Below, one piece after another: positions 365 to 26,814 of a stretch of DNA of 64,000 nt; within the stretch, counting starts at the first letter, position 1, and each line of letters starts with the position of its first letter. Below the pieces are notes generated by a model, which saw nothing but the letters and a program-made list of their open reading frames with translations, was not told where the DNA came from and searched no databases. The DNA is from Patescibacteria group bacterium (lineage in GTDB: Bacteria; Patescibacteriota; JAQUNI01). A program made the translations under genes and the position numbers. Location: positions 54,306 through 118,305 of the forward strand of contig JAQUNI010000001.1 of NCBI GenBank assembly GCA_028717685.1, in the 5' to 3' direction.

Positions 365-436
<72 letters not shown>

Positions 437-21256: not shown

Positions 21257-21751
21257 ATGTCTTTTAATAGCGATATATATGATAGTTTTAGGGATATAAC
21301 AACACCATATCAAGAGAAAAAAGTCGTAGCAGAAAAATTAGAAGGGATTATGCAAGAAATAGGAGAAATCTCTGCTAATTTGGTGCAACTCAACTCTGTG
21401 GAATTGTTAAAAGAGATTCTTTCCTTCCTTAAGCAAGATAGGCGAGGAGAAGCAGAGGAAGCCATTGGAAAAGCATGGCCAACTCTGGAACGTGAGTATT
21501 ATAGTCTCGCGGAAGGATCCTCTTCCATCCCTCCTGAAAAGAAAAAAAAATTCTGGAAAATAGCCTCTTTAATAGAAGAGGCTGAGGACGATTTTATAGC
21601 CCAAGGATTAGATACTAACGTGTCTTTTTCTTTGGGCGGGGATAGCCATATAAGAACCATTAAACAGGACATGTGGCTCCCTCCAGACAAAAGAACCTAT
21701 ACGGTTCTTTTGCAAGAATTAATGCAAGCTGTATCTCTTCCGCAACCCTAA
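21257..21751 (+). CDS. hypothetical protein (first gene of the small plus-strand island)
   Basis: 164 aa, strong SD, no recognisable domain. Confidence 0.5.
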   Translation: MSFNSDIYDSFRDITTPYQEKKVVAEKLEGIMQEIGEISANLVQLNSVELLKEILSFLKQDRRGEAEEAIGKAWPTLEREYYSLAEGSSSIPPEKKKKFWKIASLIEEAEDDFIAQGLDTNVSFSLGGDSHIRTIKQDMWLPPDKRTYTVLLQELMQAVSLPQP

Positions 21752-21904: not shown

Positions 21905-22165
21905 ATGGCGGAAGGTTTAAATATAAAACTAAGCCCTGTCCAAAGCTTAACAGCAAGAATAATCGCTGGAAAAGAAAATATGACAGGAGAAGAAATAATA
22001 ACTGTCGCCCTAAACCTATATGAAACCGTACAGGGTGAGCTAGACTCATCACCTGACCGAGTAACCTTAGCGTTGGTGAAAAACGATGGAGAAATTTACA
22101 AGGAAATAATTCTCCCTAACCATATTCCTATACTACCCGCCCACACCGATATAATTTCAATATAA
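21905..22165 (+). CDS. small ribbon-helix-helix-like protein (paralog 1)
   Basis: 86 aa with AGGAGGTG ribosome-binding site; N-terminal strand-helix-helix pattern; alignable to the next ORF (L-I-S...ALxxL...EL-S...LALV...KEIxLP). Confidence 0.45.
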   Translation: MAEGLNIKLSPVQSLTARIIAGKENMTGEEIITVALNLYETVQGELDSSPDRVTLALVKNDGEIYKEIILPNHIPILPAHTDIISI

Positions 22166-22193: not shown

Positions 22194-22469
22194 ATGTCAG
22201 AGTTGAGTATCACATTTAGTAAGAACTGGAGTGCCGAGATAACAAGAATGGCTGAAAAAAGGGGAATAGAACCAAAAAACTTGATTTTAGACGCGCTGAC
22301 TGTATTATCAGCCTTAGAAGAAGAACTAGCTTCTGGAGAGGGAAAACAAGGTTTAGCTTTAGTAAGCCCCCGTTTCCGAATCAGAAAAGAAATAGTGCTT
22401 CCCCGTTATTCCTCTAAACTATTAACAAAGAATGCGCTCACAATAGAGCCCACACTCGCCGTAGACTAA
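22194..22469 (+). CDS. small ribbon-helix-helix-like protein (paralog 2)
   Basis: 91 aa with GGGAGG ribosome-binding site; ITFSKNWSAEITRMAEKRGIEPKNLILDAL resembles a CopG/Arc-type RHH. Confidence 0.45.
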   Translation: MSELSITFSKNWSAEITRMAEKRGIEPKNLILDALTVLSALEEELASGEGKQGLALVSPRFRIRKEIVLPRYSSKLLTKNALTIEPTLAVD

Positions 22470-22499: not shown

Positions 22500-22640
22500 T
22501 TCTCCGCCTCCCGCTTCCCAAGGGGAGAGGAGTTATTATCCCCTCCTTTCCAAGGAGGGGCTAGGGGAGGTTCTGAGTCAGAACCCCACCCATCCTCCCC
22601 TTGGAAAGGGGAGGTGGGGGGAGAAAGGAAGGGGTCTTTC
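22500..22640. repeat. GC-rich imperfect palindrome / hairpin cluster (probable bidirectional terminator)
   Basis: Hairpins cccctcc-tttccaa-ggagggg and cctcccc-ttggaaa-ggggagg arranged around the perfect palindrome ggttctgagtcagaacc, between the island and the convergent serS. Confidence 0.5.
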
Positions 22641-23926
22641 TACCTCTTAATCTCTTTGAACCCACAATACTTCTGCAAAATCTTGGGCACTTCAATGGAA
22701 CCGTCTTTGCGCTGGTAATTTTCCATAATCGCAATTAAAACCCTACCAATCGCAATAGCAGTAGAGTTGATAGTATGGACAAATTTTTTATTCCCTTTCT
22801 CGTCTTTATATTTGATATTCAGACGGCGCGCTTGGAAATCCGTGTCGTGACTCGCCGAAACTACCTCGCGATAACAACTCTCTGACGGCAGCCAAGCTTC
22901 TAAGTCAATTTTTTTAGCATTAGGCGCGCCCAGATCGCCGGTTGCGATATTCACGGCTTGATAATGAATTCCCAAGCCCTGCCAAATTTCTTCCACGATT
23001 TTAACAATCATTTCGTAAACTTGCCACGAATCTTCTTGCGTAGCGAACGCGAACATTTCCAGTTTATCAAATTGATGCCCCCGCAAAATTCCTTTTAAAT
23101 CCTTACCATAAGCGCCAGCCTCCCGCCGAAAGCAAGACGAAAAACCCATATAAAGTTTTGGTTTCCCGGGGGCTAGCCCCAAAATCTCGTCCATATGGTA
23201 CGCTGCAAGCACAACCTCGGCAGTGCCAATTAAATATAATTTTTCTTTTTCATCACCCGTGAGCTCATAAATCTCATTTTTATCCGCGGGGAAGAAGCCT
23301 GTGCCATACATCGCGGCTTCGCGCACGAGCATAGGCGGCAGGATCGGAGTAAAACCTTTTTTAATTAAAATATCTAAGACATATTGTATAAGAGCAAATT
23401 CCAGGCTCACAAGCTCGTTTTTTAGATACCAAAAACGGGCGCCTGAAACCTGCGCGCCTTTTTTAATATCTATTAAATCCAAAGCCTCTCCCAATTCATA
23501 ATGGGATTTGGGTTTAAAATCAAATTTTGATGGCTCTCCCCATTGATGATCCACCGCGTTGCCAGAAGCATCCGACGCCACTGACACAGAATGATCCGAA
23601 AGATTGGGAAATTGATCTAATAAAATTTTGATCTCCGCTTCTTTCTTCTCCAATTCCTCCCTTAAAACCTGCAATTGCTCCTTGTTCTTTTTCATTCCCA
23701 TAATCATCTTGGCTTTTTCCTCCTCGCCCTGCGTCTGCACAACCTTTGCTGAAAATTCGTTCTTGACTTGTTCCAACTCATTTTTCTTTTGAATTAATGC
23801 CCGCCGTTTTTTATCCCAATCTAAAAATTCATCCACTTTTCCTGATGGCATTGCCTTTAAATGGCGATTTTTTAATTCTTGGCGCCAGAGGTCTGGCTGT
23901 TCGCGCAATAATTTTATGTCAATCAT
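22640..23926 (-). CDS. serS: serine--tRNA ligase
   Basis: 428 aa, N-terminal coiled-coil arm and class II catalytic core. Confidence 0.92.
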   Translation of the reverse strand: MIDIKLLREQPDLWRQELKNRHLKAMPSGKVDEFLDWDKKRRALIQKKNELEQVKNEFSAKVVQTQGEEEKAKMIMGMKKNKEQLQVLREELEKKEAEIKILLDQFPNLSDHSVSVASDASGNAVDHQWGEPSKFDFKPKSHYELGEALDLIDIKKGAQVSGARFWYLKNELVSLEFALIQYVLDILIKKGFTPILPPMLVREAAMYGTGFFPADKNEIYELTGDEKEKLYLIGTAEVVLAAYHMDEILGLAPGKPKLYMGFSSCFRREAGAYGKDLKGILRGHQFDKLEMFAFATQEDSWQVYEMIVKIVEEIWQGLGIHYQAVNIATGDLGAPNAKKIDLEAWLPSESCYREVVSASHDTDFQARRLNIKYKDEKGNKKFVHTINSTAIAIGRVLIAIMENYQRKDGSIEVPKILQKYCGFKEIKR

Positions 23927-23950: not shown

Positions 23951-26068
23951 TTAAAGTCCTAAATTTTGAGATATATCTTGCATCGCCCGGAGGCCGATTT
24001 TCACAAACTCTTCTAAAGATAAACCAAAGGATTCACAAGAAGTAATTACTTCTCGCCGCGCGCCTTGGGCGAAGGATTTTTCTTTAAATCTCTTTAAGAT
24101 AGACTGCATTGATAAATCAGATAATTTTTTTGATGGCAAAACCAAGGTGGCAGCCACAATCAAACCAGTCAAAGGATCCACAGCGTAAATCGCTTTTTCC
24201 ATCAAGGTTTTGCGAGGCGCGCCGCATTGATCATTATGCGCCTTAATGCCAACCAAAATTACGGGATGCACTCCTTCCTGCTCTAAAATCCCTACGGTGG
24301 TCGGACCGTGTTTTTCCGGCGCTTCGCGATAATCAAACATTTCCATATCTAAGTCGTGCAGAAGACCAGTAAGCCCCCAGACTTCCTTATTCTTTTGAAA
24401 ATGCTTGGCAAGAGCAGCCATTATCGCTTCCGTTGCCAACATATGTTTGCGCGAATTTTCATTCTTCACATATTGGCAAACCAAATCCCAAGCTTTGGCG
24501 CGCGTAATCCCTAGGTTCTCTGCCTCTTCGTTTTGAGCGGGCGCTTTTGTCGCTGGACAGACCTTTTGCGTATTTAATGGTTTCATTAAAGGAAAAAATA
24601 CTGCCTCACGGATGCTCGGAGCGTTGGTTAAAAACATTACCAGACGATCAATACCCATGCCCCAACCCGCGATCGGCGGCATTCCGTATTCCATTGCCCG
24701 CACATAATCTTCATCCATCATATGCGCCTCCGCGTCTCCCGCTTCCCGCATTTCAACCTGTTCTTCAAAACGCCTACGCTGCTCCAGAGGGTCAACTAAC
24801 TCAGAATAAGCATTGACTAATTCCTGCCCTAAAACCACTAACTGAAAACGATCCACAATCTTTGGATTCTGGTCATTCCTGCGCGCCAAGGGCGATAATT
24901 CAATGGGATGACCAGTTAGAAAAAGGGGACCTTTAATTTTCGGCCGCGAAACCTTTTTGTATAATTGATCTACTAAACCCCCAAAGCCTAATTTGCCAAA
25001 GCCTTCAATTTCAATTTTTTTCTTCCGCATTTCCTTTCTAAGTTTCTCCGCGGTATCAGCCTTGTTAATATCAATACCGCAATCTTCCAAAATCAAGCTT
25101 CCAAAATTTTTTCTCTGCCAAGGAGGAGTAAAATCTATTTTCTGACCTTGATAGTCAATCTGCAAGCTCCCAAAAACGCGGTTTAAGAGATAAACCAACA
25201 TTTCTTCAGTTTGCGCCATTAAAAATTCATAATTTTTGTAAGCCCAATAAAATTCCAGCATCGTAAAATCTTGAAGATGGGCGGTGTCCATTCCTTCATT
25301 GCGAAAAACCCGCGCCATCTCAAAAACCTTTTCCAAACCGCCTACAATTAAGCGCTTCAAATATGTTTCCGGCGCAATCCTTAAATACAAGGGAATTTGC
25401 AGGGCTTCGTGCTCTGTAATGAAAGGACGCGCGAGCGCGCCCGAAGCCTTGGTTTGAAGCACTGGCGTCTCCACCTCCAAAAAACCCCTCTCCGTCAGAA
25501 AATCACGCAGGGCATCGCAGATCTCCGCGCGCTTTTTGAAACGCTCACGCACTTCCGGATGAACAAGCAGATCCAAATAACGTTCCCGAAATCTAATCTC
25601 TTGATTAGAGAGACCTTTCCATTTTTCCGGCAAAGGACGGATGGATTTAGCGAGAATTTTATAATCGGAAACGAGGAGGGTTCTTTCCCCTTTCCGAGTG
25701 ACAAATACGGTTCCTTGGAGTTCAATAAAGTCGCCAATGTCAAAATTTTTAAAAAATTTGTATTTCTCCGGACCTGAAATGTCTTTTTTGAGATAAGCTT
25801 GGATTCTGCCGCTTTCATCATCAATATGGATGAAGGTAGAGCCGCCGTGTTCGCGAATGTTGCGTATGCGCCCCGCGACCACAATCTCGCCTTTTTCTTT
25901 TTCTATGGCTTCAAAATCATCCAATATTTTTTTGACTGTATGCGTCCGACGCGAAGAATCAGGGTAAGGATTGATTTCGGCTTTTAAAATTTTATTCAAT
26001 TTTTCTTTGCGATTTTGGATTAAATCTTTAAGCATATATTTTATTATACCTTGAGTTACGAAATTCAT
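23951..26068 (-). CDS. lysS: lysine--tRNA ligase (class II) fused to a C-terminal HD-domain phosphohydrolase
   Basis: 705 aa. Residues 1 to about 500 are a complete LysRS. The last ~200 aa carry HD-domain motifs: H (RKHMLATEA), HD (LLHDLD), H (KAHND), D (YAVDPL). Confidence 0.85.
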   Translation of the reverse strand: MNFVTQGIIKYMLKDLIQNRKEKLNKILKAEINPYPDSSRRTHTVKKILDDFEAIEKEKGEIVVAGRIRNIREHGGSTFIHIDDESGRIQAYLKKDISGPEKYKFFKNFDIGDFIELQGTVFVTRKGERTLLVSDYKILAKSIRPLPEKWKGLSNQEIRFRERYLDLLVHPEVRERFKKRAEICDALRDFLTERGFLEVETPVLQTKASGALARPFITEHEALQIPLYLRIAPETYLKRLIVGGLEKVFEMARVFRNEGMDTAHLQDFTMLEFYWAYKNYEFLMAQTEEMLVYLLNRVFGSLQIDYQGQKIDFTPPWQRKNFGSLILEDCGIDINKADTAEKLRKEMRKKKIEIEGFGKLGFGGLVDQLYKKVSRPKIKGPLFLTGHPIELSPLARRNDQNPKIVDRFQLVVLGQELVNAYSELVDPLEQRRRFEEQVEMREAGDAEAHMMDEDYVRAMEYGMPPIAGWGMGIDRLVMFLTNAPSIREAVFFPLMKPLNTQKVCPATKAPAQNEEAENLGITRAKAWDLVCQYVKNENSRKHMLATEAIMAALAKHFQKNKEVWGLTGLLHDLDMEMFDYREAPEKHGPTTVGILEQEGVHPVILVGIKAHNDQCGAPRKTLMEKAIYAVDPLTGLIVAATLVLPSKKLSDLSMQSILKRFKEKSFAQGARREVITSCESFGLSLEEFVKIGLRAMQDISQNLGL

Positions 26069-26134
26069 TTTGTTATTGTGGGAGATTTTTCCTCCTCTTG
26101 ACCTGCGGGAGACAGGGAGGGGTCTAATAAATGA

Positions 26135-26210
26135 CTATTCTCCCTCCCCCTCCGCCTCCCCCTCGGGCAGGGGGAGTGTAATCAAGCTCCTCGTTAATAG
26201 ATGACATATT
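26135..26210. repeat. GC-rich ~76 bp element, copy 2 of 2
   Basis: ctattctccctccccctcc-gcct-ccccctcgggcagggggagtgtaatcaagct..., near-identical to 5890..5965. Confidence 0.6.
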
Positions 26211-26258
26211 CCGCAATTCAAGGTCTTTAATATATTATACCAAAAACCGTAAATTTTA

Positions 26259-26293
26259 CCAAACAAAAACAGAGACGCAAAATTTCACGTCTC
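26259..26293 (-). terminator. intrinsic terminator after greA
   Basis: On the minus strand: agagacg-tgaaattttg-cgtctct followed by GTTTTTGTTT. Confidence 0.5.
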
Positions 26294-26322
26294 TACGCAT
26301 AAAATATTTATCATCCCTCTCC

Positions 26323-26814
26323 TTAAGATATTTCCAAAATTTTGTATTCTATCTTACCACCCGGGGTCTCCACCTCTACTGTATCTCCTTTTTTCTTACC
26401 AAGAAGCGCCTGACCAATCGGGCTTTCATTAGAAATCTTCCCCAATGGAGGGTCAGCCTCGTTGGAGCCGACAATAGTAAATTCCTTCTCGCTGGCATTA
26501 TTTTTCACCTTCACACTGTTTCCCACTGCCACAATATTATGCTGACCATTTTTATCAATAATAACCGCATTTTTAATCGTATTTTCAATCTCTATGATCT
26601 TTCCTTCATTAAAAGCCTGTTCATCCTTTGCGTCTTGGTATTCCGCGTTTTCAGAAAGATCGCCCAGTTCCTTGGCTACTTTAATCCGATTGGCAATTTC
26701 TCTTCTCTTGACTGTCTTGATAAACTCCAATTTTTCTTTTAATTTTTTAAGCCCTTCGGCAGTAATATATTTCTTTGTCATATTTTGTAAGTTTTTTAAA
26801 ATGCGCTTACGCAC
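26323..26814 (-). CDS. greA: transcription elongation factor GreA
   Basis: N-terminal coiled-coil plus C-terminal FKBP-like domain; acidic tip LGDLSENAEYQDAKDEQ. True start is probably the internal Met at 26781 (MTKKYITAEGL). Confidence 0.85.
   Translation of the reverse strand: MRKRILKNLQNMTKKYITAEGLKKLKEKLEFIKTVKRREIANRIKVAKELGDLSENAEYQDAKDEQAFNEGKIIEIENTIKNAVIIDKNGQHNIVAVGNSVKVKNNASEKEFTIVGSNEADPPLGKISNESPIGQALLGKKKGDTVEVETPGGKIEYKILEIS

Follow-up and report, generated by a model that had tools for sequence, protein, structure and literature searches.

Why should a housekeeping aminoacyl-tRNA synthetase carry a hydrolase at its C-terminus? The question is raised by a gene, here called lysS::HD, in a stretch of 64,000 nucleotides (the window) from a Patescibacteria group bacterium (GTDB lineage Bacteria; Patescibacteriota; JAQUNI01; GenBank assembly GCA_028717685.1, contig JAQUNI010000001.1, positions 54,306 to 118,305). 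Its product is a canonical class II lysyl-tRNA synthetase (LysRS) with a C-terminal tethered HD domain, both domains being intact, and the fusion of the two is genuine and recurrent across phyla. A preliminary description, made from the DNA letters alone, had noticed the extension and proposed that it would couple the synthesis of diadenosine tetraphosphate (Ap4A) by LysRS to its removal or, alternatively, provide a hydrolase directed at tRNA or nucleotides. The analysis reported here addresses the reality of the fusion, the family to which the HD domain belongs, and the substrate on which it might act.

Domain layout and recurrence of the fusion

The reading frame of lysS::HD is open throughout from 26068 down to 23951 on the minus strand, and its 705 codons are divided as follows.

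23951..26068, minus strand: whole lysS::HD open reading frame (ORF), 705 residues counted from the first ATG (ORF list; Pfam and NCBIfam domains)
25652..25882, minus strand: anticodon-binding OB fold of LysRS, residues 63-139 (PF01336 tRNA_anti-codon, 59.8 bits)
24584..25606, minus strand: class II catalytic core of LysRS, residues 155-495 (PF00152 tRNA-synt_2, 274.6 bits)
24512..24577, minus strand: interdomain linker, residues 498-519, 22 residues in frame, of low predicted local distance difference test score (pLDDT) and variable among fusions
23954..24511, minus strand: HD (HDIG-type) phosphohydrolase domain, residues 520-705, 186 residues (PF01966, TIGR00277)

The complete class II LysRS core that had been claimed is present. 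The LysRS portion comprises residues 1-497, and with the whole protein as query the NCBIfam models for the lysS equivalog, TIGR00499, and for PRK00484 are matched with 563 bits (cut-off 427.6) and 629.6 bits (cut-off 468), respectively; the models for LysX and EpmA also match the core. Core residues, including R256, E258, H264, E416 and R475, are invariant over 75 fusions, and a full-length AlphaFold model predicts a confident fold for this part, with pLDDT mostly above 90. A second LysRS-like match was not seen within the 64-kb window, the only part of the genome examined.

The claimed extension of the HD superfamily was recovered as well. PF01966 matches residues 541-617 with 25.6 bits in the full protein and with 28.3 bits when the HD domain alone is the query (gathering score 22), and the characteristic residues H542, H571-D572, H587, H611 and D631 are all in place. 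The match to the HDIG model TIGR00277 is marginal, at 27.7 bits (cut-off 27.6) when only the domain is used and at 25.0 bits with the full protein; both models are matched by 41 of the 41 HD family members used for profile comparisons. The AlphaFold model of the HD domain alone is all-helical, with a pLDDT of 94.7. The interval 23951-24560 singled out in the preliminary description corresponds to residues ~503-705 plus the stop codon, that is, to linker and HD domain, and the junction at 24560-24620, where a stop or frameshift had been thought worth looking for, contains neither a stop nor a change of frame when the DNA is read directly. The full-length model (predicted template modelling score 0.71) consists of two confident domains and a low-confidence segment between them, with pLDDT values of 47-65 for residues 500-520 and below 50 for residues 507-513, and thus the linker looks like a flexible tether joining LysRS and HD domain in the prediction.

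The first ATG of the ORF, in the stretch 26035-26068 of the minus strand, is probably not the start codon. Close homologues (P0121, 694 residues; P0128) begin with MLKD..., which corresponds to M12, and therefore translation probably starts at M12 (nucleotide 26035), giving a protein of 694 residues. A GGAGG motif lies 5' of the first ATG, about 22 nucleotides away from it.

The architecture is not confined to the window. When the best 120 matches of a full-protein homology search were considered and the presence of the HD domain was checked by BLAST, 117 were LysRS-HD proteins (identity 42-95%), in all of which the HD domain was found end to end at the C-terminus, with 31-94% identity over all 186 residues. 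By name, the sources of the fusions are Candidatus Doudnabacteria, Patescibacteria/Parcubacteria, Planctomycetota and Spirochaetota; P0121, for example, is a protein of Candidatus Doudnabacteria that is 95% identical to that of the window. The architecture is present in public databases, annotated only as "lysine--tRNA ligase". A search of 1.84 billion representatives was made with a hidden Markov model (HMM) that kept the LysRS columns (692 positions), and its 44,405 matches (E<=0.001) therefore refer to LysRS and HD taken together, from which the size of the HD family cannot be read. The 150 proteins listed from it were re-screened with an HD-only HMM, and among these listed matches at least 33 clusters at 50% identity carry LysRS together with the HD family. 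A genome scan with the full protein returned mostly plain LysRS of Firmicutes and two fusions only (L007, L052). The linkers of the fusions differ in length and sequence, and one protein of 715 residues among the 33 clusters (P0271) has the reversed order, with the HD domain at residues 1-179 and LysRS at residues 216-714, which is probably the result of an independent fusion event. A separate gene of the HD_4 (small alarmone hydrolase) type, divergently oriented, adjoins the LysRS-HD fusion gene of a spirochaete (L088 5097-5642, minus strand).

It should be noted that a fusion of this kind could be mimicked by a single insertion or deletion, as one related locus (L091) has lysS and HD as separate genes only 5 nucleotides apart. 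However, an artefact, in which frameshift, assembly or sequencing error or a lost stop has joined two genes, would have to account for an in-frame linker of 22 residues, for more than 100 independent clusters with the fusion from NCBI, JGI, ENA and Logan assemblies, and for a specific change at the N-terminus of the HD domain, where the fusions have G-I-T/N-R at the position of M-x-R in stand-alone proteins, i.e. the start codon has been replaced. An artefact was rejected on the grounds of the open frame, of these clusters and of contigs up to the Mb scale (several fusion genes sit on contigs of 0.1-1.7 Mb), and the probability left to it is negligible.

Conserved residues, free-standing relatives and linkage to lysS

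Free-standing HD proteins of ~185 residues from Patescibacteria form a very large set, with which the HD domain of the window shares 55-66% identity; with the C-terminal 209 residues as query, E=8e-70 at 66% identity was obtained, so that chance can be dismissed as the source of the HD signal. A word-indexed search with the domain alone listed only such ~185-residue proteins and omitted even P0121 (94% identical over the domain); it is not exhaustive and gives no basis for calling the fusions rare.

Conservation was tabulated over 120 stand-alone proteins and 117 fusions (237 sequences). Invariant or nearly invariant are H542, H571-D572, D574, E/D576, H587, H611-N612, D/E631, K647, F666-A667 and R672, and a set of basic residues is conserved (K647, K659/R660, K662, K664, R672). 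The positions of the predicted active site are the following, given with their counterparts in YqeK (COG1713), an HD-type enzyme of Firmicutes that hydrolyses Ap4A/Ap4N symmetrically and decaps Np4-RNA.

24443..24445, minus strand: H542, first metal-ligand His; H in all 120 stand-alone proteins and in 94 of the 117 fusions, the other 23 having Q; aligns with YqeK H21
24341..24358, minus strand: H571-D572-L-D574-M-E576, the HDxDxE motif; H571 and D572 predicted metal ligands, D574 invariant and family-specific; codons verified
24308..24310, minus strand: H587, predicted second-metal ligand; H in every one of the 117 fusions, either H or Q in the stand-alone proteins; aligns with YqeK H83
24233..24238, minus strand: H611-N612; H in 237/237, N in more than 93%; the H aligns with YqeK H109
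24176..24178, minus strand: D631, last acidic ligand; D in all 120 stand-alone proteins and D or E in all 117 fusions; aligns with YqeK D127
24053..24073, minus strand: F666-A667...R672, family-specific motif and putative substrate pocket; invariant in 237/237

The presence and near-invariance of the ligand residues speak against the possibility, raised in the preliminary description, that the C-terminal domain belongs to an unrelated family lacking the metal-binding His and Asp residues.

Free-standing HD genes are found close to lysS. In five of five loci examined, the HD gene lies downstream of lysS on the same strand, with 0, 1 or 3 genes in between. The order lysS-ydjM-HD is found in three loci of the Candidate Phyla Radiation (CPR; L004, L006, L090), and in these the 3' end of the ydjM-family gene (PF04307, ~168 residues) overlaps the start of HD. 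In a further locus (L089) the two genes are separated by a gene with a Fic domain plus two small ORFs (lysS-fic-x-x-HD), and the last one, L091, has the order greA-lysS-TAG-5 nt-ATG-HD-serS. There lysS and HD do not share a reading frame, and the locus is an unfused counterpart of the arrangement in the window. An independent scan of metagenomes, based on an alignment of the HD domain only, yielded 80 loci, 65 of them informative: one is fused, 33 have lysS directly upstream (25 within ~110 nucleotides and eight with roughly one gene between), and 31 are without lysS within at least 2 kb upstream. Taken as Rosetta-stone and operon evidence, fusion and linkage make a strong case that the HD protein works together with LysRS in these lineages.

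A neighbour-joining tree of the HD domain (183 columns) places the protein of the window, together with the six fusions closest to it, among free-standing CPR proteins; the remaining ~110 fusions are separated from this group with a bootstrap of 98/100, and an indel of two residues at positions 579-580 agrees with this split. Therefore, as judged from these sequences, more than one event of fusion or fission has occurred. The phylogeny of LysRS is poorly resolved and was not used to count fusion events. Three unfused LysRS proteins (P0127, P0128, P0160; 62-76% identity) nest in the clade of the window in the LysRS tree, and one of these, P0128 (L001 4001-5503), still has the beginning of the linker at its end, ...MKPLDKQKVCPGAKKSK, followed directly by its stop codon. 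Such a remnant within the clade suggests that the HD domain was lost secondarily in this lineage. The gene of P0128 is followed by an ORF of 402 residues without Pfam match, which by eye resembles a charged coiled coil.

Proposed substrate and rival explanations

What might the domain hydrolyse? LysRS is the principal cellular producer of Ap4A and of related Ap4N, which are formed from lysyl-AMP and ATP or another nucleoside triphosphate (NTP) when tRNA is limiting, and YqeK-type HD enzymes split Ap4A and remove the cap from Ap4A-capped RNA (PMC13627108). When the profile of the family was compared with all sequences of the Protein Data Bank (PDB), only YqeK-family chains were returned (8jja, 8.9e-6; 8wmy, 9.5e-6; 2ogi; 3ccg; 2o08), and H542, H571, D572, H587, H611 and D631 align one to one with H21, H50, D51, H83, H109 and D127 of GtYqeK, i.e. 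with the two sets of metal ligands, H21, H50, D127 and H83, H109, D51, of that enzyme (PMC13627108). YqeK-family chains are also the top matches of the domain model in Foldseek, albeit weak ones (E about 1e-2, TM about 0.5). Both proteins are all-helical HD domains of ~190 residues that share the H..HD..H..H..D two-metal ligand set residue for residue, and both are joined to a partner enzyme: YqeK is fused to, or in an operon with, the adenylate-forming enzyme NadD, and the window's HD domain is fused to LysRS. The NadD-YqeK model PRK07152 is matched, below threshold, by 33 of the 41 family members.

Because LysRS is the main source of Ap4A and all sequence relatives with a solved structure are Ap4A hydrolases, we lean tentatively towards the HD domain being a tethered hydrolase of the Ap4A or, more generally, the dinucleoside tetraphosphate (Np4N) type. 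We infer from sequence comparison that its target is a phosphorylated compound arising from the chemistry of LysRS, with Ap4A/Np4N as the putative substrate, predicted two-metal catalysis and the physiological purpose outlined here. Lysyl-AMP on LysRS would react with ATP or another NTP instead of tRNA, giving Ap4A or Ap4N; the tethered two-metal HD domain would hydrolyse these at the site of their production, and the adenylates would be recycled. Np4-capped RNA might be a further substrate, in which case the domain would act in decapping.

Several observations weigh against this proposal. The YqeK model TIGR00488 finds no match in the window domain at E<=1; 34 of the 41 family members match it weakly, at best with E 2.3e-6 and below the cut-off. 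Better scores, all sub-threshold, are obtained with PRK12703, the HD half of a tRNA (cytidine56-2'-O)-methyltransferase fusion (36 of 41 members, best E 1.4e-11), with a DVU_1551 NTP transferase model (4.4e-11), with the archaeal HD model TIGR00295 and with RNase Y. The phosphate clamp of YqeK (R18/K54 in HDxxK/R133) is not conserved, the aligned residues being S/L539, M/F/Y/W575 and I637, and the fold is equally similar to HD-GYP, PgpH and the beta-subunit HD domain found in glycyl-tRNA synthetase (GlyRS). In 23 of the 117 fusions, all named as of Planctomycetota type (e.g. P0175, P0184, P0231), H542Q and D572N always occur together, with H571, D574, H587, H611 and R672 remaining invariant, so that the HD domain of this type may have an altered metal site or be a non-catalytic pseudo-enzyme. 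Some fusions contain further domains between LysRS and HD: tRNA_bind plus the B3_4 editing domain of phenylalanyl-tRNA synthetase (PheRS)-beta in P0252, B3_4 alone in P0268, and DUF2000 in P0266 and P0167, all of which point to the tRNA 3' end. Full-length P0266 returned only chains of LysRS and aspartyl-tRNA synthetase from the PDB, nothing on DUF2000.

Weight on the same side comes from cultured Clostridia (Moorella, Pelotomaculum, Desulfofundulus, Thermincola, Carboxydocella), in which "HDIG domain-containing metalloproteins" of 183 residues are encoded away from lysS, in the order eno-secG-[H+-PPase-4HBT thioesterase | two AMP-binding ligases]-HD-[rnr]-smpB. Such loci include those of Pelotomaculum thermopropionicum (L172) and Thermincola potens (L173), as well as L133, L140, L149 and L153; in some of them the start of HD overlaps the thioesterase gene. 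YqeK has been reported to be widespread in Firmicutes already (PMC10148737), and therefore the family is probably not simply "the" Ap4A hydrolase in Clostridia. In favour of a nucleotide substrate, the HD gene of one Clostridial genome directly follows genes for adenylate-forming AMP-binding ligases, and inserts of NUDIX (P0267) and HAD (P0275), also placed between LysRS and HD, point to nucleotide or phosphate hydrolysis and are consistent with nucleotide clean-up; as all inserted domains are hydrolase or tRNA-handling accessories, a general theme of clean-up modules is possible.

Membership in the YqeK family itself was rejected, as neither the model scores nor the phosphate-clamp residues fit. 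The basic residues K647, K659/R660 and R672 are conserved, yet not at positions equivalent to the clamp, and in the PDB profile search the alignment to YqeK did not extend to the C-terminal half, which follows D631 and holds the F-A...R motif; the conserved aromatic residues F666 and F688 lie in this part (YqeK has an aromatic sandwich, F135/F163, and an adenine pocket of L81, L164, Y172 and T175). The family has its own invariant D574, N612, F666-A667 and R672, its structural similarity to YqeK reaches a TM-score of only ~0.5, and its partner is LysRS where that of YqeK is NadD. The sub-threshold scores, the missing clamp and the family's own invariant motif thus set the domain apart, at the level of sequence, as an HDIG subfamily of its own, so far uncharacterised, whose metal centre resembles that of YqeK and whose substrate pocket is probably different. 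Of the HD, HDIG and YqeK families that the preliminary description had named for a profile search of the extension, the first two were matched and YqeK was not, and the proposed coupling of Ap4A synthesis and removal remains the leading and a plausible, partly supported account, favoured by the YqeK-like ligands and the linkage to lysS and weakened by the absent clamp and the missed model.

The main rival holds that the domain is a phosphoesterase of tRNA or RNA ends, i.e. a 2',3'-cyclic phosphodiesterase or 2'/3'-phosphatase that heals the 3' ends of tRNA(Lys) or RNA for charging or degradation, or another tRNA-directed hydrolase. A 2',3'-phosphoesterase activity is known from the HD domains of HD-Pnk and of the CCA-adding enzymes of bacteria, and PRK12703 would represent a second tRNA enzyme as the partner of a related HD domain. 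The alignments span nearly the whole domain (positions 4-161 of 164 in TIGR00295 and 172-319 of 339 in PRK12703); however, the similarity is weak, 20 bits against cut-offs of 172 and 434, respectively, and to our knowledge the HD proteins of both models are themselves uncharacterised. The tRNA_bind plus B3_4, B3_4 and DUF2000 inserts fit this explanation, whereas the NUDIX and HAD variants suit nucleotides better, and the position of Clostridial copies directly upstream of the genes for RNase R and/or SmpB, which also supports it, may merely reflect the conserved secG-...-rnr-smpB backbone. The conserved basic cluster K647, K659/R660, K662, K664, R672 and the precedent of GlyRS-beta (PMC9908026) count in its favour; nevertheless, it offers no reason why LysRS among the synthetases would bear a general end-healing enzyme, and a role at RNA ends is somewhat unlikely. 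A more specific version, in which the domain is a repair or proofreading phosphoesterase for the synthetase's own tRNA(Lys) 3' ends or for damaged tRNA(Lys), and in which the same family would take part in RNA quality control beside RNase R/SmpB in Clostridia and beside a tRNA methylase in archaea, is unlikely; if true, it would add a new class to the catalytic domains appended to aminoacyl-tRNA synthetases.

Hydrolysis of some other small phosphorylated molecule, such as (p)ppGpp or (p)ppApp, cyclic dinucleotides, NTP/dNTP, AMP, pyrophosphate or an aminoacyl-adenylate, would mean that the fusion reflects regulation or co-expression with translation. The family's own acidic HDxDxE motif, its pocket unaligned to YqeK (F666-A667, R672) and the apparent operon of some Clostridial copies with genes for an H+-pyrophosphatase and a 4HBT thioesterase would agree with this; on the other hand, the models of HD_4/RelA-SpoT, HD-GYP and PgpH gave no sequence-level match, Pfam yielding the generic HD family only, the separate HD_4 gene beside the spirochaete fusion argues against redundancy in ppGpp hydrolysis, and the repeated fusion and linkage favour a substrate that is made or used by LysRS, so that such a substrate appears quite unlikely. 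It is very improbable that the domain is mainly non-catalytic and serves as an added module that binds tRNA or senses nucleotides and in this way modulates LysRS, like the HD domain of the GlyRS beta-subunit. The 23 fusions with H542Q and D572N and an otherwise conserved domain would be explained by this, but the ligand set is kept in the 120 stand-alone proteins (H587 as H or Q) and in 94 of the 117 fusions, including that of the window, independent stand-alone proteins of ~185 residues are typical of enzymes, and the variable, flexible linker and the reversed order oppose a fixed geometry of tRNA docking.

The locus, known systems and the meaning of the fusion

The genes upstream of lysS::HD, for PBP2, folD and greA, and serS downstream of it lie on the same strand as the fusion gene. 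The features around lysS::HD are the following.

22640..23926, minus strand: serS (Pfam Seryl_tRNA_N and tRNA-synt_2b); begins 24 nucleotides past the lysS::HD stop
26069..26225, minus strand: structured, G/C-rich 5' leader of lysS::HD; minimum free energy -58.8 kcal/mol, z = -3.2 against shuffled sequences
26234..26262, minus strand: upstream promoter-like site of lysS::HD, TTGGTA-17-TATAAT, the second hexamer being preceded by TG; 10/12 consensus matches, a consensus match only
26269-26296: terminator-like hairpin after greA (terminator scan)
26323..26814, minus strand: greA (Pfam GreA_GreB), conserved upstream neighbour

Because the terminator-like hairpin of greA is followed by a promoter-like site and a leader, and because the terminator scan found no minus-strand terminator-like site in the 24-nucleotide gap to serS, lysS::HD and serS look like one transcription unit, and this is likely to be the case. 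The leader contains the hairpins CCCCC...GGGGG and GGAGGGGGAGGGAG...CCCCTCCCTGTCTCC and could be regulatory; no Rfam family matched it. The order lysS-...-HD-...-serS recurs in relatives, and greA-lysS is kept in L001-L006, L090 and L091. Elsewhere in the window, a tRNA gene at 365-436 (minus strand, 69.5 bits) is the sole match in the 64 kb at the Rfam gathering score. Two adjacent small ORFs without Pfam match, 21905-22165 (plus strand, 86 residues) and 22194-22469 (plus strand, 91 residues), resemble tandem paralogues by eye, both ending in ...ALV...KEI(I/V)LP..., and an ORF of 164 residues at 21257-21751 is likewise without Pfam match.

A search of the literature on LysRS with HD, YqeK with LysRS, COG2316, COG1713 and Trm56 with HD retrieved no description of the fusion and no characterised member of the family. 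The following known systems come closest to it. In LysX (MprF-LysRS of mycobacteria) and in EpmA/PoxA a class II LysRS core has also been reused with an added function, but these employ Lys-tRNA or lysyl-AMP for the modification of lipids or of elongation factor P, whereas the core in the window is the canonical lysS equivalog with a hydrolase added. In Rel/SpoT ((p)ppGpp) and in GlnD (uridylyl-transferase/removing enzyme), one polypeptide makes a product and an HD domain undoes it; if the domain of the window hydrolyses Ap4A, the fusion would follow, by analogy, the same logic of making and undoing. The HD domain in the beta-subunit of bacterial (alpha-beta)2 GlyRS is internal, rigidly integrated and serves as a clamp for the tRNA acceptor stem (PMC9908026), in contrast to that of the window, which is C-terminal, flexibly tethered, equipped with the full ligand set and also found free-standing.

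Whether Ap4A acts as a true alarmone or arises as an unwanted by-product is still under debate, and the fusion bears on this question. The HD domain has been tied to LysRS repeatedly: at least three phyla have the fusion, one protein with the order reversed, and in many CPR bacteria the two genes are linked in an operon. LysRS seems to gather hydrolase or tRNA-handling accessories in these lineages. If Ap4A or Np4N is the substrate, selection would favour the destruction of these compounds at their source, and the HD protein would be the missing Np4N hydrolase in lineages from which neither ApaH nor YqeK has been reported. If the domain instead acts on the end of a tRNA or another RNA, it would be a catalytic accessory of a new kind for a synthetase. 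In both cases, an HDIG subfamily that is large and uncharacterised has been defined, with thousands of members that include proteins of the cultured Moorella, Pelotomaculum and Thermincola.

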